From Escherichia coli (GTDB lineage Bacteria > Pseudomonadota > Gammaproteobacteria > Enterobacterales > Enterobacteriaceae), in assembly GCF_016903815.1 (NCBI RefSeq), contig NZ_CP069973.1: a stretch of DNA of 64,000 bases; one strand, 5' to 3'. The notes beneath the pieces were generated by a model. The model worked only from the letters and a program-made list of their open reading frames with translations, was not told where the DNA came from and did not search any database. Positions 3,711-62,270 of this stretch are shown piece after piece. The position numbers and the translations under genes were made by a program. Every line of letters starts with the position of its first letter. Positions within the stretch are counted from its first letter, which is position 1.

Positions 3711-4609
3711 TTGCGCTCCTCGTCTTTCTCTTCGTGCAGATTATTCTCTTCCTCATCCGCACGGTTCGGACCGACACCCACGTAGTGGAAGATACTGGCT
3801 GCGAAGGTAGCCGCAAAGCCAACAGCTGCGAGCGGTTTCCAGATGCCTTTCCAGAATTTCACGGTTTCGCTGATTTCCGGGTTCTCCGGCAAGCCATGAT
3901 ACAGATTTGGCTTGTCAGCATGGTGCAGCACGTACATAACGTGTGTACCACCAACGCCTGCCGGATCGTACAGACCCGCATTGTCGTAACCGCGAGTTTT
4001 CAGCTCCGCCACGCGCTCGCTCGCCAGCGTTTTCATCGACTCTTTCGTACCGAAGTGAATCGCGCCCGTTGGGCAGGTCTTCACGCAGGCCGGTTCTTGC
4101 CCAACCACCACGCGGTCAACGCACAGCGTACATTTGTAGACGCGGTTGTCTTCCGGGTTGAGGCGCGGAATGTCGAACGGACAGCCCGCAATGCAATAAC
4201 CGCAGCCGATGCACTGCTCGGACTGGAAGTCGACGATACCGTTGGCATACTGAATAATTGCTCCTTCCGCCGGGCACGCTTTCAGGCAGCCTGGATCGGA
4301 ACAGTGCATACAGCCGTCTTTGCGGATCAGCCATTCCAGTTTGTCGTTCTGTTCCACTTCCGAGAAGCGCATCACCGTCCACGATTTGGCACTTAAATCA
4401 TTGGGGTTGTCGTACACCCCAATGTTATTGCCGACGGTATCGCGAATGTCGTTCCACTCTGAACACGCCACCTGACAGGCTTTACAGCCGATACAGGTGG
4501 TGACGTCGATGAGTTTCGCCACTTCTTCCTGGAAGTCCCGCGCCTGAGGCGCGGGGGTCAGACCGTTAGTCGCGGAACGACGAATGATATCTTGAGATTG
4601 ATAAGCCAT
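3707..4609 (-). CDS. fdoH: formate dehydrogenase-O iron-sulfur subunit
   Basis: 300-aa ORF with multiple CxxCxxCxxxCP ferredoxin motifs. Confidence 0.94.
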
Positions 4610-4621
4610 ATGTCGTCTCCG

Positions 4622-7600
4622 TTACACCTTTTCCACATTCACAAGGAAGGACTTAAACTCTGGCGTCTGCGTGTTCGCATCACCAACGAATGGCGTTAAC
4701 GTATTGGCAATAAAGCCTTTTTTCGCAACACCTTCATAGCCCCAGTGAATCGGAATACCGATGGTATCGATATCTTTGCCGTTCGCTTTCAGCGTGCGAA
4801 TACGTTTGGTCACCACCGCTTTGGCTTTTATATAGCCACGGTTGGAGGAGACTTTCACTGTATCGCCCTGGGCAATGCCAAGTTTATTCGCCAGCGACTC
4901 ACCGATTTCCACAAACTGCTCTGGTTGCAAAATCGCGTTCAACAGCGCGTGTTTGGTCCAGTAGTGGAAGTGCTCGGTCAGACGATAGGTGGTTCCGACA
5001 TACGGGAACTTATCGGCTTTACCCAATGCTTCGGCGTCGTCTTTAAAGATACGTGCAGCCGGGTTCGAGATAACGTTTGGATGCAGCGGGTTAGTTCCCA
5101 GCGGCGTTTCAAACGGCTCGTAGTGTTCCGGGAACGGACCTTCCGCCATCTTATCGAGGGCAAACAGACGCCCCATGCCTTCCTGCTGCATGATAAACGG
5201 CCCAACGCCACTGCCCGGAGGCGCTGCGCTGTAGTCCGGAATATCCCAGCCGGTCCACTTAGTGCCGTCCCATTTCAGCAACTGACGCTTCGGATCCCAC
5301 GGGTTACCCTGCGGATCTGCGGAGGCGCGGTTATACAGAATGCGGCGGTTAAGCGGCCATGCCCATGCCCAGCCCAGCGTGTTACCGAGGCCAGACGGAT
5401 CGGCGTTATCACGACGCGCCATCTGGTTGCCCTCTGGCGTCCAGCTACCGGCGAAAATCCAGCAGCCACAGGAGGTGGTACCGTCATCGCGCAGTTGGGC
5501 GAACGAGCTAAGTTGTTGGCCTTTCTTGACGATAACCGCACCGGTTGCCGGATCGGTAATATCGGCCAGCGCCTTACCGTTGCTCTCCATCGCCACTTCT
5601 TCCGACTTCGGCTCATGCGGGATGGCGTAGTTCCAGGTCATGTTCAGCACCTGGTCCGGGTTCGCGCCACCCTGTTCGGCATACATCTTGCGCAAGCGCA
5701 GGAAGATACCGGAGAGGATCTCGCCGTCAGTCAGCGCAATCCCAGGGGCGTCCGCACCTTTCCAGTGCCACTGCAACCAGCGACCTGAGTTAACGATTGA
5801 ACCGTTCTCTTCCGCGAAGCAGGTCGATGGCAGACGGAACACTTCGGTCTGGATCTTCGACGAGTCAACTTCGTTCAGCTCACCGTGGTTCTGCCAGAAG
5901 TTAGAGGTTTCAGTGTTCAGCGGGTCGATGGTGACGAGGAACTTCAGTTTCGACAGACAACCGATCACTTTGTTTTTGTTCGGGAATGAGGCAACAGGGT
6001 TAAAACCCTGGCAGATATAGCCATTGACCTTGCCTTCTTTCATCATCTCGAAGTATTGCAGGACGTCGTAGCCTTTATCCCACTTCGGCAACCAGTCAAA
6101 GCCCCAGCTATTTTCCGCCGTCGCTTTATCACCAAAGAAGGCCTTCATCATAGAGACGAAGAATTTCGGGTAGTTGCCCCAGTAGTTTACCTGGCCTTCC
6201 AGCAGCGGTTTTGGCGTGTTGGCGGTAAGGTAGGTTTGCAGATCGGTCTGCTTCTCGCTTGGCAGCGTCATGTAACCCGGCAGGCTCTGCGACAGCAGCC
6301 CCAGGTCCGTCAGCCCCTGAATATTGGAGTGACCGCGCAGGGCGTTAACGCCGCCGCCGGCCATCCCCATATTGCCGAGCAGCAGCTGGATCATCGCCAT
6401 CGTACGAATGTTTTGCGCACCAACGGAGTGTTGCGTCCAGCCGAGGGCATACAGGAACGAGGCAGTTTTATCGTGTGCACTGGTTTCGGCGATGTATTCG
6501 CAGACTTTCAGGAACGCGTCTTTTGGCGTACCACAGATGTTTTCAACCACATCTGGCGTGTAGCGGGAAACGTGCTGTTTCAGCAAGTTCCACACGCAGC
6601 GCGGATGTTGCAGCGTGGTATCGCGTTTGGCGAAGCCGTTTTCGTCCAGTTCGTAAGTCCAGGAGGATTTATCGTACTTGCGTTTTTCCGCGTCGTAGCC
6701 GGTGAACAGGCCATCTTCAAAGCCGTAATCCTCACGCACGATAAGGCTAGCGTTGGTATAGGCTTCGGTATATTCGCGGTTGAATTTTTCATTGTTCAGC
6801 AGGTACAGCAATACGCCTGACAGGAAAGCAATGTCAGTACCGGAACGAATAGGGGCATAGTAGTCAGCCACCGCCGCCGTACGCGTAAAGCGAGGATCGA
6901 TCACAATCAGCTTCGCGCCGTTGTGAATTTTGGCTTCCATCGCCCAGCGGAACCCGACCGGGTGAGCTTCAGCGGCATTACCGCCCATCACCACGACGAG
7001 GTTGGCGTTCTTGATGTCGACCCAGTGGTTGGTCATCGCACCGCGACCAAATGTTGGAGCAAGACTTGCTACCGTTGGTCCGTGTCAGACACGCGCCTGG
7101 TTGTCGACCGCGAGCATCCCCAGCGCGCGGGAGAATTTTTGCGTTAAATAGCCGGTTTCGTTACTCGACGCGGAAGCACAAAGCATCCCGGTGGAGAGCC
7201 AGCGGTTAACAGTCACGCCTTCGGCGTTTTGCGCAATGTAGTTAGCATCGCGGTCTTCTTTCATCAGTTTGGCGATGCGATCAAACGCCTCTTCCCAACT
7301 GATTTGCTGCCATTTATCAGAACCTGGCGCACGGTATTCCGGAAACTTCAGACGGCTTTCGGAGTGGATGAAATCCACCAGGCCAGCGCCTTTCGGACAA
7401 AGTGCACCGCGGTTGACCGGGTGATCCGGATCGCCTTCGATATGGAAGATAGATGCTTTGGCGTTTTTTGCTCCGTCACCGAGGCTGTACATCAACAGCC
7501 CACAGCCTACGGAACAATAGGTGCAGGTATTACGGGTTTCGCGGGTGCGCAGCAGTTTATACTGCCGGGTTTCCGCGAGTGCTACGCTGGGTGCAAAACC

Positions 7601-7865: not shown

Positions 7866-8699
7866 GTGAAAAAAACACAGCAAAAAGAAATCGAAAATGT
7901 GACAAATGTCACAGGTGTTCGTCAAATTGAGTTATGGCGGCGTGATGATTTACAACACCCACGGTTAGATGAGGTCGCGGAAGAAGTTCCCGTTGCGCTG
8001 GTCTACAACGGCATTTCGCATGTGGTGATGATGGCGTCGCCCAAAGACCTTGAGTACTTTGCGCTCGGTTTTTCGCTTTCCGAGGGGATTATCGAAAGTC
8101 CGCGCGATATCTTCGGTATGGATGTCGTTCCTTCCTGTAATGGTCTGGAAGTGCAAATTGAGCTTTCCAGCCGCCGCTTTATGGGGTTGAAGGAGCGCCG
8201 CCGGGCGCTGGCGGGACGTACGGGCTGTGGCGTATGCGGTGTAGAACAGCTTAACGATATCGGTAAACCGGTGCAGCCGCTGCCGTTCACCCAGACGTTT
8301 GATCTCAACAAACTGGATGATGCATTACGTCATCTCAATGATTTCCAGCCAGTGGGGCAACTGACTGGTTGTACTCACGCCGCTGCATGGATGTTGCCAT
8401 CTGGCGAACTGGTCGGCGGGCATGAAGACGTGGGTCGCCATGTGGCGCTGGACAAACTGTTAGGCCGCCGGTCACAAGAAGGGGAAAGCTGGCAGCAAGG
8501 TGCGGTACTGGTTTCCAGCCGTGCCAGTTATGAAATGGTGCAAAAGTCGGCGATGTGCGGCGTAGAGATTTTGTTTGCGGTGTCTGCCGCGACCACGCTT
8601 GCTGTAGAAGTGGCTGAGCGCTGTAATCTGACACTGGTAGGTTTTTGTAAACCGGGTCGGGCAACGGTTTATACCCATCCGCAGCGTTTGAGCAATTAA
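7866..8699 (+). CDS. fdhD: formate dehydrogenase sulfurtransferase/accessory protein FdhD
   Basis: 277-aa ORF; recognised sequence; divergent from fdoG. Confidence 0.93.
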
Positions 8700-8706
8700 T
8701 TAAAAT

Positions 8707-8747
8707 AAGTCCTGCGATATATATTAAATTGCAGGACTTATTCATTT
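8707..8747 (+). terminator. hairpin after fdhD (AAGTCCTGC...GCAGGACTT followed by a T-rich tail)
   Basis: 9-bp perfect inverted repeat with 15-nt loop, seen directly. Confidence 0.5.
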
Positions 8748-8748
8748 C

Positions 8749-9429
8749 GTGAATTTTATTATTTTATTTATAAACAAAGCGCGTGTAGTGGCGTTAACGC
8801 CTGCGCTGCAACCTATTGATGGCGTGGCGGTAAGTTATATTGATACTGCCGTGGCGTTGGGTAATACCATTAACGAAATGGATAAATATTACACCCAGGA
8901 AAATTATAAAGACGATGCGTTTGCGAAAGGGAAAACGCTGCACCAGACATTCTTAAAAAATCTTGAAGCCTTTGAACCTGTAGCAGAATCTTATCATGCG
9001 GCGATTCAGGAAATTAACGATAAGCGCCAGCTTGCGGAACTGAAAAATATTGAACAAAGAGAAGGGAAAACATTCCACTACTACTCTCTGGCAGTCATGA
9101 TTTCAGCGAAACAAATTAATAACCTGATTTCGCAAGAGAAGTTTGATGTTGATGCGGCAATGAAGAAAGTCTCTGAACTGGAAACGCTGGTGGCGCAGGC
9201 CAAAGAAGCGGATAAAGGCGGTATGAATTTCTCGTTCATTAATTCGGCAGACCAGTATCAACTCGAGGCTAAAAAATATGTTCGCCGCGTCAGAGATAAA
9301 GTTCCGTACTCTGACTGGGATAAAGAGCAACTTCAGGATGCAAACACAAGCTGGATGGTCGACGACTCATTTCCGCGAGCGTTACGCGAGTACAACGAAA
9401 TGGTCGATGACTATAATAGCCTGCGTTAA
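8749..9429 (+). CDS. yiiG: YiiG-like protein (DUF3829 family as I recall); ORF looks 5'-truncated
   Basis: 226-aa ORF with GTG start, no SD, no signal peptide, begins 2 nt after the fdhD terminator; I recall K-12 YiiG as about 351 aa. Confidence 0.55.
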   Translation: MNFIILFINKARVVALTPALQPIDGVAVSYIDTAVALGNTINEMDKYYTQENYKDDAFAKGKTLHQTFLKNLEAFEPVAESYHAAIQEINDKRQLAELKNIEQREGKTFHYYSLAVMISAKQINNLISQEKFDVDAAMKKVSELETLVAQAKEADKGGMNFSFINSADQYQLEAKKYVRRVRDKVPYSDWDKEQLQDANTSWMVDDSFPRALREYNEMVDDYNSLR

Positions 9430-12309: not shown

Positions 12310-13750
12310 GCTCCTGTTGCGCGGCTTTCGCTTTGCGGCGTAACCACAATCCTTTCAGGACGATAATGAATGAAATGTTCAGCGCGAGGCCAATCGCCAG
12401 CACCAGATAAAACGAACCCACCGGCGACATCAGGCCGATCAGCGGGTCAAAGATACCCAAACCAGGTGCCAGTCGTTTGATTCCGAAAGCGATCACCAGC
12501 ACGCCGGTAATGCCGCCCGCCAGCGTATTGGCGGTAATCATTGGCAGTGGTGCCGCCAGAGCGTAAGGAATAGCCGGTTCGGTCGCGACCGTGGCACCGA
12601 CCACAATGGCGCTACTGGCGGCTTCTTTTTCCTGTTGAGTAAACAGTTTGGGCGCAATGAACGTCGCAAGACTCGCCGCGACAGGCGGCATCAGCGCGAC
12701 AACGCCGACGATGGCGTACCAGTCGTAAATGTGTTTTTCCAGCAGTGAGAAGCAGAAGAACCAGGCGGTTTTATTGATAGGGCCGCCCATATCGAACGCC
12801 AGCATCGCACCGACCAAAAACGCTGCCGCAAACTTCATTGACGGAGGAATGGTGTTCAGGAAGTGCAGCAACCCGCCCATGAGGTCGGACATCACCGGTC
12901 CGATAACGTAGTAAGTCAGTACGCCGAAAACCAGCAGAGTGACGAACGGGATCAGCATGGAACCGAGCAGCGGTTGTAATGCTTTGCCAAGGCGCACTTT
13001 ACGGAACCAGAAGACGAAATAGCCAATCGCCAGCCCCAGCACCACCGCGCCGAGGAAGCCCGCGCCAGACTGGGTGCCGAGCAGGGCTTTGTCATTCGCC
13101 AGATAGCAAACCAGAAACGCCGGAGCGAAAGCGGGTTTATCGGCAATCGACGAGGCAATATAAGCGCCCATGATGGGGATCATAAAGGTGAAGCCGAGAT
13201 AACCGATGGATTCAACCACCCAGGTAAACGACGGCGCGCCTTTCGACATATCGGTATACGGCAAACCGAACTGCACCAGCATGTTGGCAAGCGCCACCAG
13301 GATACCGCCACCGATGACAAACGGCAGCGCCGCAGAGACACCCGCCATCAGATGGCTCATTACGCTGCCACTTTGCACTTCCTGTTTGCCGAGCTTCACG
13401 CCGCTATCTGCGGCAAAAAGTTGTGAGTTTGTCGGTAATTCACTGAAAATCTGGTCGATATTTTTCAGCGCCTGGGAGATGGCAATCTCATAAACCATTT
13501 TCCCGGCAAATCGCGCGCGATCGTCACCGCTCAGGCCACGCCCGGTGGCGAAAATCACGTAATCGGCAGCGGCAATCTCTTCGCTGGATAAGCGGTTTTC
13601 GACGCCGCTTGATCCTTGAGTTTCCACTTTTATGGTATGGCCGAGAGAACGGGCTTTCTGTTCCAGGGCTTCCGCCACCATGTAGGTGTGAGCGATCCCG
13701 GCGGGGCAGTTGGTGATCGCGACAATACGTAAGGATGACTCCATCGCCAC
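12293..13750 (-). CDS. frvB: PTS fructose-like IIBC component
   Basis: 485-aa polytopic membrane ORF with N-terminal IIB-like CPAGIAHTYM cysteine motif. Confidence 0.9.
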   Translation of the reverse strand: MAMESSLRIVAITNCPAGIAHTYMVAEALEQKARSLGHTIKVETQGSSGVENRLSSEEIAAADYVIFATGRGLSGDDRARFAGKMVYEIAISQALKNIDQIFSELPTNSQLFAADSGVKLGKQEVQSGSVMSHLMAGVSAALPFVIGGGILVALANMLVQFGLPYTDMSKGAPSFTWVVESIGYLGFTFMIPIMGAYIASSIADKPAFAPAFLVCYLANDKALLGTQSGAGFLGAVVLGLAIGYFVFWFRKVRLGKALQPLLGSMLIPFVTLLVFGVLTYYVIGPVMSDLMGGLLHFLNTIPPSMKFAAAFLVGAMLAFDMGGPINKTAWFFCFSLLEKHIYDWYAIVGVVALMPPVAASLATFIAPKLFTQQEKEAASSAIVVGATVATEPAIPYALAAPLPMITANTLAGGITGVLVIAFGIKRLAPGLGIFDPLIGLMSPVGSFYLVLAIGLALNISFIIVLKGLWLRRKAKAAQQELVHEH

Positions 13751-13754
13751 GTCC

Positions 13755-14201
13755 TTATGAGCTGAGGGTTTGATTTAACAAAGCAAGCACCTGGTCGGCG
13801 TCGCCCTGTCGCAGTTGGTCGATAAAATCCTGGTGGATAATTTTGCGGCATAGCGTGCCGATGATTTTGACCTGATCCTCTTCGCCACTTTGCGGCACAC
13901 CGAGGCAGATCCAGCAATTGACGTCTTCGCCATCGCTGGCTTTCCAGTCAATGGCCTGCGCTTTGCGGGCGAATAACACGAACGGTTGTTTAACGCAGGC
14001 GCTTTTACCGTGCGGCACGGCGACACCGGAACCAAATCCCGTGGAGTGCATTTTTTCGCGCAGCAGCAGGGTTTGCAGGAATTGATGTGAGTCGGTGATA
14101 AAACCGTTTTGTAACGCCATTGTCGCCAACTGCTTCAGAACGGAATAAGTGCCATTGCCCTGAATATTCAGGTCAATACAGCTTGCAGTAAGTGCTGCCA
14201 T
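13755..14201 (-). CDS. frvA: PTS fructose-like IIA component (148 aa from MAALTASC...)
   Basis: Track ORF 13755..14330 is an upstream over-extension from a GTG; recognised FrvA start. Confidence 0.88.
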   Translation of the reverse strand: MAALTASCIDLNIQGNGTYSVLKQLATMALQNGFITDSHQFLQTLLLREKMHSTGFGSGVAVPHGKSACVKQPFVLFARKAQAIDWKASDGEDVNCWICLGVPQSGEEDQVKIIGTLCRKIIHQDFIDQLRQGDADQVLALLNQTLSS

Positions 14202-14677
14202 TATTGGACTCCATGAAAAAATATTATAGTTAATTGTAACGGCGGGGCGGTTTTGTGATGAGCGCGGATATGTCGTGAAGTCGTGACAATATAAGGCAGA
14301 GTGAAGGATAAATTTTGCGGTGTAAGGCACATATTGATGGGCAAAATAAATGCAGTGAATAAAAAATCATTATTTAATGATGTTGTGAATGTTTAACTGC
14401 CGCACATGTTTTGCAGCAAGGTTATTTATATTTGTGGCTTATGAGTCAGCGTGAATTATATCTAATATTTTTTACGATATTTGGTTAAAAACGGCACTAT
14501 TGTTATATTCCTCACGTTCCAGGAAATCAGCGGATTTACTCATATTATGCAGCGGGATACTATCCATAGGCCTGCTGAAGTTGGATTAAAAATTCGAAAG
14601 TGCACACCTTATATTTCTCTATATACGTATTCCTTTTGGAAAGCGTAGGGTCTCTTTTATTTCAGGGAACGTAAATA

Positions 14678-16072
14678 ATGAAAAAATCGACATTATCTTT
14701 AGCCATCGGTTTATTATTGGCATGTAGTACCGGAATGGCAAAAACACAGCATTTAACGCTGGAACAACGCATGGCATTGCTGGAAGAACGCCTGGAAGCG
14801 GCAGAAATGCGGGCAGCAAAAGCAGAGAGCCAGGTTAAACAGCTGCAGACACAACAAGCCGCTGAGATCCGCGAAATTAAGGCTGCCCAGGGCAATACGC
14901 CGGTAAATGGACAGGCAACGGCGGAATCTGCAAAGAAAAATTCCACCTCACCTAATCTTTTGCTCTCAGGTTATGGCGATTTAAAAATCTACGGCGATGT
15001 AGAATTTAATATGGATGCGGAAAGTAATCATGGCCTGCTGGCAATGACCAACGCTGATGTGAATAGCGATCCCACTAATGAACAGTGGAATCTCAATGGT
15101 CGTATTCTGTTAGGTTTTGATGGTATGCGAAAACTGGATAATGGCTATTTCGCCGGGTTCTCCGCACAACCGCTGGGGGACATGCACGGTTCAGTAAATA
15201 TCGATGATGCGGTATTCTTCTTTGGCAAAGAAAACGACTGGAAGGTCAAAGTAGGCCGTTTTGAAGCCTACGATATGTTCCCGCTGAATCAGGATACCTT
15301 TGTTGAACATTCCGGTAATACTGCGAACGATCTTTATGACGATGGCAGCGGTTATATCTATATGATGAAAGAGGGCCGCGGGCGCTCTAACGCTGGCGGT
15401 AATTTCCTCGTCAGCAAACAACTTGATAACTGGTATTTTGAATTAAACACGTTACTTGAAGACGGAACATCTTTATATAATGACGGTAATTATCATGGAC
15501 GCGATATGGAGCAGCAGAAAAATGTTGCTTATCTGCGTCCGGTAATTGCCTGGTCGCCGACGGAAGAATTTACCGTTTCCGCAGCGATGGAAGCGAACGT
15601 GGTAAATAATGCTTATGGTTATACCGATAGCAAGGGTAATTTTGTCGATCAGTCCGATCGTACCGGCTATGGTATGAGCATGACCTGGAATGGCCTGAAA
15701 ACGGATCCGGAAAATGGCGTCGTGGTTAATCTTAATACCGCCTATTTAGATGCTAATAATGAGAAAGATTTCACTGCCGGGATTAACGCGCTGTGGAAAC
15801 GTTTCGAGCTAGGTTATATCTACGCGCACAATAAGATTGATGAATTCAGCGGTGTAGTTTGTGATAACGACTGCTGGATTGATGATGAAGGGACGTACAC
15901 CATTCACACCATTCATGCGTCTTATCAGTTCGCTAATGTGATGGATATGGAGAACTTTAATATTTACCTCGGGACGTATTACTCCATTCTGGATAGCGAC
16001 GGTGATAAAAAACACGGTGATGATACTGATGACCGTTACGGCGCACGCGTTCGCTTTAAATACTTCTTCTGA
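14678..16072 (+). CDS. outer-membrane carbohydrate porin, ScrY/LamB-like, with N-terminal coiled-coil extension
   Basis: Signal peptide MKKSTLSLAIGLLLACSTGMA; heptad-like LEQRMALLEERLEAAEMRAAKAESQVKQLQ; Tyr/Gly/Asn/Asp-rich beta-barrel-like body; C-terminal ...RFKYFF. Confidence 0.7.
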   Translation: MKKSTLSLAIGLLLACSTGMAKTQHLTLEQRMALLEERLEAAEMRAAKAESQVKQLQTQQAAEIREIKAAQGNTPVNGQATAESAKKNSTSPNLLLSGYGDLKIYGDVEFNMDAESNHGLLAMTNADVNSDPTNEQWNLNGRILLGFDGMRKLDNGYFAGFSAQPLGDMHGSVNIDDAVFFFGKENDWKVKVGRFEAYDMFPLNQDTFVEHSGNTANDLYDDGSGYIYMMKEGRGRSNAGGNFLVSKQLDNWYFELNTLLEDGTSLYNDGNYHGRDMEQQKNVAYLRPVIAWSPTEEFTVSAAMEANVVNNAYGYTDSKGNFVDQSDRTGYGMSMTWNGLKTDPENGVVVNLNTAYLDANNEKDFTAGINALWKRFELGYIYAHNKIDEFSGVVCDNDCWIDDEGTYTIHTIHASYQFANVMDMENFNIYLGTYYSILDSDGDKKHGDDTDDRYGARVRFKYFF

Positions 16073-16112
16073 TGAAGGCGCGGTGCTGGATATTTTCCGG
16101 CACCGCAACTCA

Positions 16113-16427
16113 TTATGGCAGGTAAAACACTTCTTGCAGCTCGCTACTGACTGGGCTGTTATCCGGGTTAGCTGGCATAACGTCGGTCATATATTTCCAC
16201 CAACGTTGGCAAACATCAGTGCTGGCTACCGCATTCCACCGTTCTTCAGATTCAATCTCTACCGTGGCAAACAGCAGATTACGCGCTTTGTCGAGGTAAA
16301 TGGCGTAGTTATGCGCACCGTGAGATTTCAACACTGCTTCCAGTTCCGGCCAGATGGGGTTATGCCGACGCTGATACTCTTCGTGGGCGTCGGGGTTAAC
16401 CTGCATTACAAAGGCTTTGCGGATCAT
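16113..16427 (-). CDS. rhaM: L-rhamnose mutarotase
   Basis: 104-aa ORF, recognised sequence. Confidence 0.92.
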
Positions 16428-17343: not shown

Positions 17344-20356
<3,013 letters not shown>

Positions 20357-62138: not shown

Positions 62139-62270
62139 ATATCACCAACGATTTCACAAGGTCGTTGATTTTGTCCGGCAACTATCCCCTGCGGATGTGA
62201 TTACTCTCACATAAATAACTCTTTCAGAACGTAATGTAGCAATCCTTTAAATCACTGAAAGGGACTATTT

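Follow-up and report, generated by a model that had tools for sequence, protein, structure and literature searches.

The window analysed here, a stretch of 64,000 nucleotides of Escherichia coli (assembly GCF_016903815.1, contig NZ_CP069973.1), carries between frvA and rhaM the gene of a 464-residue porin, which belongs to the RafY glycoporin family (PF16966, TCDB 1.B.15) and stands alone on the chromosome as an 'orphan'. The porin is already known: it belongs to a described family, is annotated in RefSeq and appears in the literature as rafY2. What our analysis adds is small and will not surprise a specialist, namely a locus history that explains why the gene adjoins the rha genes, a 47/52% dimorphism and the prediction of a conserved CRP-like promoter. 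Overall, the best explanation, which we consider probable, is that of an orphan RafY-type porin at an inherited position, for which the role of a wide, CRP-activated sugar channel is proposed. This outer-membrane channel is missing from K-12 and is carried by about one in two E. coli strains, among them B strains and O157:H7; the tempting link to rhamnose through guilt by association is corrected here.

Family assignment and architecture of the porin

Residues 104-464 of the protein align with the complete Pfam profile PF16966 (Porin_8, 'Porin-like glycoporin RafY'; positions 1-372 of 372) with a score of 513.9 bits and E=3.1e-154, the cutoff of the profile being 25 bits. The other features of the RafY family were also found, that is, a signal peptide, a predicted barrel of 16 strands and an aromatic residue at the C-terminus, which reads ...RFKYFF. 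Membership of the LamB/ScrY family was rejected on the barrel profile and on the strand count (predicted 16, not 18). The LamB profile (PF02264) gave no match to the protein even at E<=1, no LamB or ScrY chain was matched in PDB sequence or profile searches, and NCBIfam gave no meaningful match to the porin. Furthermore, the open reading frame is not a chance one, because of its Pfam score (E=3e-154), its 658 homologs and a ratio of non-synonymous to synonymous substitution rates (dN/dS) of 0.04-0.14. A first-pass annotation of the window had described a reading frame of 464 residues with a signal peptide, a coiled coil, a barrel-like body and a C-terminal Phe between frvA and rhaM, and each of these elements was confirmed, the flanking genes by both the list of open reading frames and the annotation of the NCBI Prokaryotic Genome Annotation Pipeline (PGAP). 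The start that it gave, 14331, corresponds to the edge of a strain-specific segment and not to the start of the gene, which is at 14678. The same gene is called 'carbohydrate porin' by PGAP in thousands of genomes.

The closest described relative is the plasmid-borne RafY. A megablast search retrieved a gene about 86% identical on E. coli plasmids, and on one of them (NZ_CP029113) the porin ends a cluster of genes for a LacI-type regulator, an alpha-galactosidase, a major facilitator superfamily (MFS) permease, a glycoside hydrolase of family 32 (GH32) and the porin, which is the rafR-rafA-rafB-rafD-rafY operon layout described in PMC4809568. We compared the window protein with this porin, not with the pRSD2 sequence itself. 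Both are 464 residues long, with 79% identity and 87% positives over 450 amino acids, and have in common the signal peptide, coiled coil, linker and barrel, the ...RFKYFF end and a C-x3-C pair in predicted surface loop 7 (L7), most differences falling in the signal peptide, the linker, L1 and L8. The window gene differs in being chromosomal, at a fixed frvA-rhaM site and without rafR, rafA, rafB or rafD, none of which lies beside the porin in E. coli, and the region upstream of the plasmid rafY does not have the CRP-like motif conserved upstream of its chromosomal relatives. Since linkage to raf genes is typical of the founder and does not define the family, its lack is no bar to RafY membership. 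A comparative-genomics paper on O157:H7 named the chromosomal copy rafY2 in a background without rafRABD, and another paper reported a complete rafABD operon in just 23 of 45 rafY-positive E. coli isolates.

Function has been tested for the plasmid RafY only. The title of Andersen et al. 1998 presents RafY as a general diffusion pore that is not carbohydrate-specific, and a wide general-diffusion channel that passes oligosaccharides is known for the plasmid protein only. In other bacteria, a Salmonella RafY homolog was reported to be induced by lactulose, and GlyP of Klebsiella pneumoniae, which has been assigned to the RafY family and for which a barrel and a short helix were modelled, serves as a larger substitute porin with which cells deficient in OmpK35/36 regain their competitiveness for nutrients (bioRxiv 10.64898/2026.03.29.715108). 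GlyP, which we liken to the E. coli porin by description, is encoded in a regulator-permease-hydrolase-porin operon and repressed by the LacI-type GlyR, whereas the E. coli porin has no linked regulator. As a separate observation, synonymous divergence (dS) from the E. coli porin was lower for the plasmid rafY (0.94; positions 7925-9316 of locus L003) than for Citrobacter orthologs (1.8 to saturated), and the non-synonymous divergence (dN) from codons 14678-16069 was higher (0.132 vs 0.086-0.109). One possible account is that the mobile rafY was picked up from a lineage resembling Escherichia and that its protein has evolved faster since; similar codon usage is another.

The barrel was modelled with AlphaFold2, for which 49 members of the family (25-85% identity) were aligned. 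The model (mean predicted local distance difference test score (pLDDT) 81.4; predicted template modelling score 0.71; barrel blocks mostly >90) places sixteen long beta-strands within residues 101-463, which bears out the barrel-like body of the first-pass annotation and argues against the 18-stranded LamB-type barrel that it had suggested looking for. PDB sequence and profile searches retrieved no structure of the family and noise only (dehydroquinase and MinC, E ~1-2). Similarity to the 16-stranded trimeric porins OprP (2O4V), Omp-Pst1 (4D64), Omp32 (1E54), DcaP (6EUS), VhChiP (5MDO) and OprB (4GF4), at 8-14% identity and with no sequence relationship in profile searches, is a resemblance of fold and not family membership.

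The most conserved region of the protein is the loop of residues 195-240, in which none of the 46 positions varies across six E. coli alleles and six vary among 11 sequences from six genera and the plasmid copy. It also holds three of the eleven invariant columns of the family (D206, Y228 and R236) and the near-invariant R234 and G235. In the cross-genus set, the linker, L1, L7 and L8 were the most variable parts, a contrast that agrees with a functional loop folded inward and surface loops that are exposed. In OmpF-type porins the constriction loop L3 occupies the same place, and by this analogy loop 195-240 is probably the constriction of the pore.

N-terminal to the barrel, residues 27-72 have a heptad register in which 11 of the 13 a/d positions are hydrophobic, the other six registers having 4-6 of 13-14, and AlphaFold2 predicts a single helix at residues 28-70. 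The Pfam domain Sugarporin_N (PF11471) was matched at residues 27-54 with 15.3 bits (E=0.024), under its cutoff of 25.7 bits. Among the 49 aligned relatives, 17 match it at E<=0.01 (best 5.9e-7), and these matches together with the clear heptads indicate that the domain is homologous at the family level, this sequence alone being below cutoff. The motif LEQRLxxLExRLxxAExRA is kept throughout the extended subclade, and most distant members of the family (~350-390 amino acids) have no N-terminal extension. ScrY (PDB 1A0S) and LamB (PF02264) are outer-membrane sugar channels too, and the periplasmic coiled-coil extension of ScrY belongs to the same Pfam family, Sugarporin_N. The architecture, as read from profiles and the predicted model, is thus a ScrY-type coiled coil joined to a different, 16-stranded barrel, a combination that makes it a reasonable structural target. 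The comparison with sucrose porins made in the first-pass annotation therefore holds for the N-terminal domain and not for the rest, as the barrel is not of the LamB/ScrY type. Between helix and barrel, pLDDT falls under 50 at residues 74-98, and 25 of 30 positions vary among 11 orthologs in the bin of residues 71-100.

The N-terminus has the sequence of a typical Sec signal peptide, and the cleavage context ...TG(M/F/W)A\KT, where the stroke marks the predicted cut, is kept in orthologs of other genera. A lipoprotein was rejected as a candidate: 'LLLAC' (residues 12-16) fits the L-x-[AGS]-C lipobox only in E. coli, and Cys16 (14723-14725) is absent from the Citrobacter, Klebsiella and Enterobacter orthologs, which keep the A\KT context, so that a lipobox is unlikely. 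Two other cysteines, Cys395 and Cys399 (15860-15874), form the C-x3-C pair of the predicted surface loop L7 and may be joined by a disulfide; the O157 allele has a third cysteine at residue 400 (W400C).

Locus history and distribution in E. coli

In the window, frvA (ATG at ~14201, minus strand) lies 5' of the porin and diverges from it, and rhaM (16113-16427, minus strand) lies 3' and is convergent. When the K-12 frvA-rhaM region was compared with the window by blastn, homology broke off at 14333 and restarted at 16112. MG1655 has no gene between frvA and rhaM, just a 300-bp gap, in agreement with the first-pass annotation, which knew of no K-12 gene at this position. The 167-bp K-12 filler was considered and rejected as a deletion scar, its local alignment with 14334-16111 scoring 20 and shuffled sequences 21.2 on average; no remnant of the porin is detectable in it that would tell loss from gain.

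Gene order in other genera, taken from ten look-ups of orthologs, favours loss of the porin in the K-12 lineage over gain. In three lineages of Citrobacter and in Kluyvera, Pseudocitrobacter, Klebsiella sp. B345, K. grimontii and Raoultella, the porin flanks the rha cluster on its rhaM side. Porin and rhaM converge in every case and hence never share one transcript. In Pseudocitrobacter and one Citrobacter lineage, a cassette of GntR, phosphotransferase system and GH4 genes lies between porin and rhaM. The orthologs of Klebsiella sp. B345, Raoultella planticola and an Enterobacter sp. are 73-76% identical to the E. coli porin. They have rhaM or frvA as a neighbour, like the E. coli gene, and carry its upstream motif as well, and their genomes keep a co-oriented LacI-type regulator, a GH36 alpha-galactosidase and a LacY-type permease, whereas the E. 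coli porin stands alone. A rafR-like gene, the GH36 gene, the permease gene and the porin follow one another in Klebsiella sp. B345 and Raoultella, with rhaM next, on the other strand. The Enterobacter porin diverges from frvA exactly as the E. coli one does, and these three raf-like genes come after it. Other partners were found in K. grimontii (a LacI-MFS-beta-helix cassette) and Buttiauxella (an ATP-binding cassette (ABC) transporter with GH13 and GH130 genes), and in Escherichia, Citrobacter and Kluyvera the porin has no raf partners. The simplest reading of these gene orders would be that the porin is an old resident of the locus, which stands beside alpha-galactoside genes in some lineages. 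With this locus history, its adjacency to rha is a matter of inherited gene order and not of shared function. Additionally, Citrobacter, Kluyvera, Pseudocitrobacter, Klebsiella and Raoultella have a conserved gene for an HTH_3/Cupin_2 regulator of 182 amino acids at the position that the frv operon takes in E. coli. This gene diverges from azlCD, precedes the porin or raf cluster by a few hundred bp and points in the same direction as the latter.

Within E. coli, at least 80% of the 14331-16072 segment is present in 2,544 of 5,426 complete genomes (~47%), and 2,826 of them (~52%) hold the K-12-type filler. Together these make up ~99% of the genomes and thus a clean two-state polymorphism, which is the outcome of the survey of gene order across E. 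coli genomes that the first-pass annotation had proposed. The filler itself comprises two haplotypes ~10% apart. In strain 1579 an IS1 is inserted within or next to the porin segment. Strain HS30-1 (locus L002, 3288-4077) has IS1A in place of yiiG, of the frv operon and of the porin except for the last 75-77 bp, which remain beside rhaM; this is an IS1-mediated deletion and a third allelic state of the locus. All six E. coli alleles sampled are intact. Their dS reaches 0.23, pairs with a dS of 0.05 or more have dN/dS of 0.04-0.14, and dN/dS against C. rodentium is 0.06. The pairwise values indicate long-term purifying selection wherever the gene is present.

The flanks of the segment are also diverged. 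The frvA gene plus its start region (13700-14333) is 91.0% identical to K-12 (locus positions 4323-4956) over 635 bp and rhaM is 95.5% identical, a divergence that is unusual for E. coli housekeeping DNA. In strain NQ3 the whole frv operon is missing and a yiiG (DUF3829) remnant directly adjoins the porin. Old polymorphism seems to be concentrated in the entire fdhD-frv-porin-rha stretch.

Predicted promoter, proposed role and alternative explanations

Upstream of the porin, the motif TGTTA-N6-TCAC(G/A) has its one exact match in the 64-kb window, where 0.14 would be expected. This CRP-like motif was found upstream of all 13 rha-locus orthologs examined, from seven genera, and is absent from porin-less loci and from the upstream regions of the plasmid rafY and of Buttiauxella. 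Exactly 18 nt past the motif, TTTAC(A/T/C) is present in E. coli, C. rodentium, Citrobacter sp., Kluyvera, Pseudocitrobacter and Enterobacter. A -10-like hexamer at the same spacing reads TAATAT, TAATAA or TAATGA in Enterobacter and the two closest Citrobacter lineages, and is weaker in Kluyvera (TAGTGT) and Pseudocitrobacter (AATATT). From this geometry we predict a motif centre at -61.5, which is the class I position of CRP, a transcription start near 14570 and a leader of ~108 nt, and CRP would be expected to bind at 14501-14516. The predicted promoter has 8 of 12 consensus positions and scores under the threshold of a generic promoter scan. That scan, which also covered terminators, flagged neither the conserved promoter nor a stem-loop 3' of the gene, which were found by cross-species comparison and folding. 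A second conserved block, TTTTTACGATATTT (14468-14481), lies ~20-35 nt upstream of the CRP-like motif and is common to E. coli and two Citrobacter lineages; Enterobacter and Klebsiella do not have it.

In the mechanism that we propose, the porin would be exported by Sec, cut by signal peptidase I after Ala21 and inserted in the outer membrane as a 16-stranded barrel, probably as a homotrimer like its best structural matches. Loop 195-240 would probably fold inward and shape the pore, and the N-terminal helices would probably form a three-stranded coiled coil that extends into the periplasm, as in ScrY. By analogy with the plasmid RafY (79% identical), the result would be a wide, weakly selective diffusion channel that would speed the entry of di- to oligosaccharides (raffinose, sucrose, maltodextrins and the like) at low concentration, to be taken up by any inner-membrane permease. 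Cyclic AMP (cAMP)-CRP at -61.5 would activate a weak sigma-70 promoter with its start near 14570, and the predicted activation would lead to expression when preferred sugars are scarce. In this scheme, we infer the expression, trimer formation, pore size and substrates of the porin.

We also put forward, tentatively and with some doubt, that the protein is a cAMP-CRP-activated wide-channel 'hunger' porin whose ancient ~47/52% split alters outer-membrane permeability by strain. If so, strains with the gene would be better scavengers of oligosaccharides or of other bulky nutrients, and it could rescue fitness after loss of OmpF/OmpC in antibiotic-resistant strains, as has been reported for GlyP in K. 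pneumoniae, with the entry of bulky antibiotics as a possible cost; K-12-based work would have missed all of this. Provided that the channel is expressed, it could affect differences between strains in the use of oligosaccharides, such as raffinose-family sugars in soy-rich animal diets, and the outer-membrane permeability of porin-deficient resistant strains. The practical value is modest.

Several points weigh against our interpretation. The searchable literature yielded no experiment on the chromosomal copy, and the strand count comes from a predicted model, the RafY family being without a solved structure. The CRP-like motif has two core mismatches, one of them the lack of the G at position 7 of the left half-site. 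CRP sites with two mismatches occur in the window at chance level (25 found, 25.7 expected), so it is only conservation that carries the candidate site. Klebsiella and Raoultella have the motif without the -35/-10 spacing, and the very AT-rich upstream region fits silencing by H-NS. Lastly, that the porin is ancestral and was lost in K-12 is read from cross-genus synteny only, as the K-12 filler is not a recognisable scar.

Among the alternatives, the one that survives best is that the main selected role is not raffinose-type uptake: the porin would serve as a large back-up general porin for other nutrients, or be maintained as a phage or colicin receptor, and its presence or absence would reflect a trade-off between the entry of nutrients and that of antibiotics or phages. 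This we regard as unlikely. The general diffusion pore in the title of Andersen et al. 1998 is in line with it, and up-regulation of GlyP, a porin linked to glycerol-containing compounds, was by itself enough for a fitness benefit in an OmpK35/36-deficient strain. The family cassettes are diverse, ranging from raf genes to the LacI-MFS-beta-helix and the ABC, GH13 and GH130 genes described above, and the ~47/52% split is stable, with both the empty-site haplotypes (~10% apart) and the porin alleles (dS up to 0.23) being old. However, the predicted surface loops vary little within E. coli (L1 at 0 of 17 positions, L7 at 1 of 17 and L8 at 2 of 10), which gives no sign of strong phage-driven diversification. 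Such a role would overlap our explanation and does not exclude it.

A second alternative, which we find quite improbable, is that the porin is a cryptic leftover that has lost its raf partners, is silent (e.g. repressed by H-NS), contributes nothing and is being lost. It would account for an E. coli porin without linked permease, hydrolase or regulator, for an upstream region of 36% GC, for a weak predicted promoter (8 of 12 consensus positions) and for a gene that is missing from 52% of complete genomes and disrupted or deleted by IS1 in some strains. Nevertheless, dN/dS of 0.04-0.14 at dS up to 0.23 indicates long-term purifying selection, six of six alleles are intact, and conservation across genera, including the orphan lineages Citrobacter and Kluyvera, extends to the promoter motif and its spacing as well as to the putative constriction loop.

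The weakest alternative, an 18-stranded LamB/ScrY-type channel specific for rhamnose-containing or related oligosaccharides and tied to the rha genes, as the first-pass annotation had speculated from the placement, has in its favour that the porin adjoins rhaM in E. coli and five other genera and has a ScrY-like N-terminal coiled coil, but we hold it to be extremely improbable, the adjacency being inherited gene order. Co-regulation with rhamnose genes was rejected in a comparison of k-mers, in which the region upstream of the porin had only one 11-mer (14447) in common with that between rhaB and rhaS; this 11-mer is private to the lineage of the window (it is found neither in four other E. 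coli alleles nor in other genera) and was therefore treated as chance.

Other features of the locus

The coordinates of all features are collected in Table 1. In the predicted leader, the 5' hairpin could be a leader element or a target of small RNAs, as in other porin mRNAs. A similar hairpin is found in the leader of C. rodentium (z -2.5), and that of Enterobacter, at the same place with a different sequence, is not significant (z -0.6).

Table 1. Features of the porin gene and its surroundings, in positions of the window
Feature	Position	Strand	Details
Divergent frvA-porin intergenic region	14202..14677	none	476 bp, ~36-41% GC (composition profile); holds predicted promoter
Strain-specific segment	14334..16111	none	1,778 bp; MG1655 has ~167 bp of unrelated filler instead
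CRP-like motif TGTTATATTCCTCACG	14501..14516	+	8/10 core positions of TGTGA-N6-TCACA; predicted centre -61.5
Predicted -35, TTTACT	14535..14540	+	inferred from cross-genus spacing
Predicted -10, TACTAT	14558..14563	+	17-nt spacer; predicted start near 14570
Hairpin in 5' untranslated region (weak)	14624..14647	+	CGUAUUCC-UUUU-GGAAAGCG; dG (folding free energy) -9.9 kcal/mol, z -2.2; ~30 nt before ATG
Shine-Dalgarno-like AGGGA	14664..14668	+	9-13 nt before ATG; AAGGAA/AGGGAA kept in upstream alignment
Porin coding sequence	14678..16072	+	ATG start, 464 amino acids and TGA stop; list of open reading frames; same start and stop in PGAP annotation of other genomes
Signal peptide, residues 1-21	14678..14740	+	MKKSTLSLAIGLLLACSTGMA\KT; predicted signal peptidase I cut after TGMA
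Heptad coiled-coil helix, residues 27-72	14756..14893	+	heptad register, AlphaFold2 helix, Sugarporin_N match
Variable linker, residues 73-100	14894..14977	+	low model confidence
16-stranded beta-barrel, residues 101-464, RafY family	14978..16069	+	
Loop after strand 5, residues 195-240 (46 residues)	15260..15397	+	between beta5 and beta6; predicted L3-like constriction loop
GC-rich stem-loop	16080..16106	both	in the gap between porin and rhaM, which converge; may be a terminator for both directions or a hairpin at mRNA ends

Beyond the porin stop, a second in-frame TGA is present at 16073-16075, and the stem-loop that follows folds on both strands (plus strand, dG -24 kcal/mol, z -5.6; minus strand, -20.2 kcal/mol, z -4.4). 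No U-run follows it on either strand, which makes its function as a terminator uncertain. An Rfam search of 14150-16250 gave nothing at E<=1. Elsewhere in the window there are two perfect CRP core consensus sites, TGTGACAAATGTCACA (7898-7913) and TGTGATTACTCTCACA (62196-62211), and two near-consensus sites lie at 20178-20193 and 20213-20228 in the rhaB-rhaS intergenic region, for which CRP sites are known.

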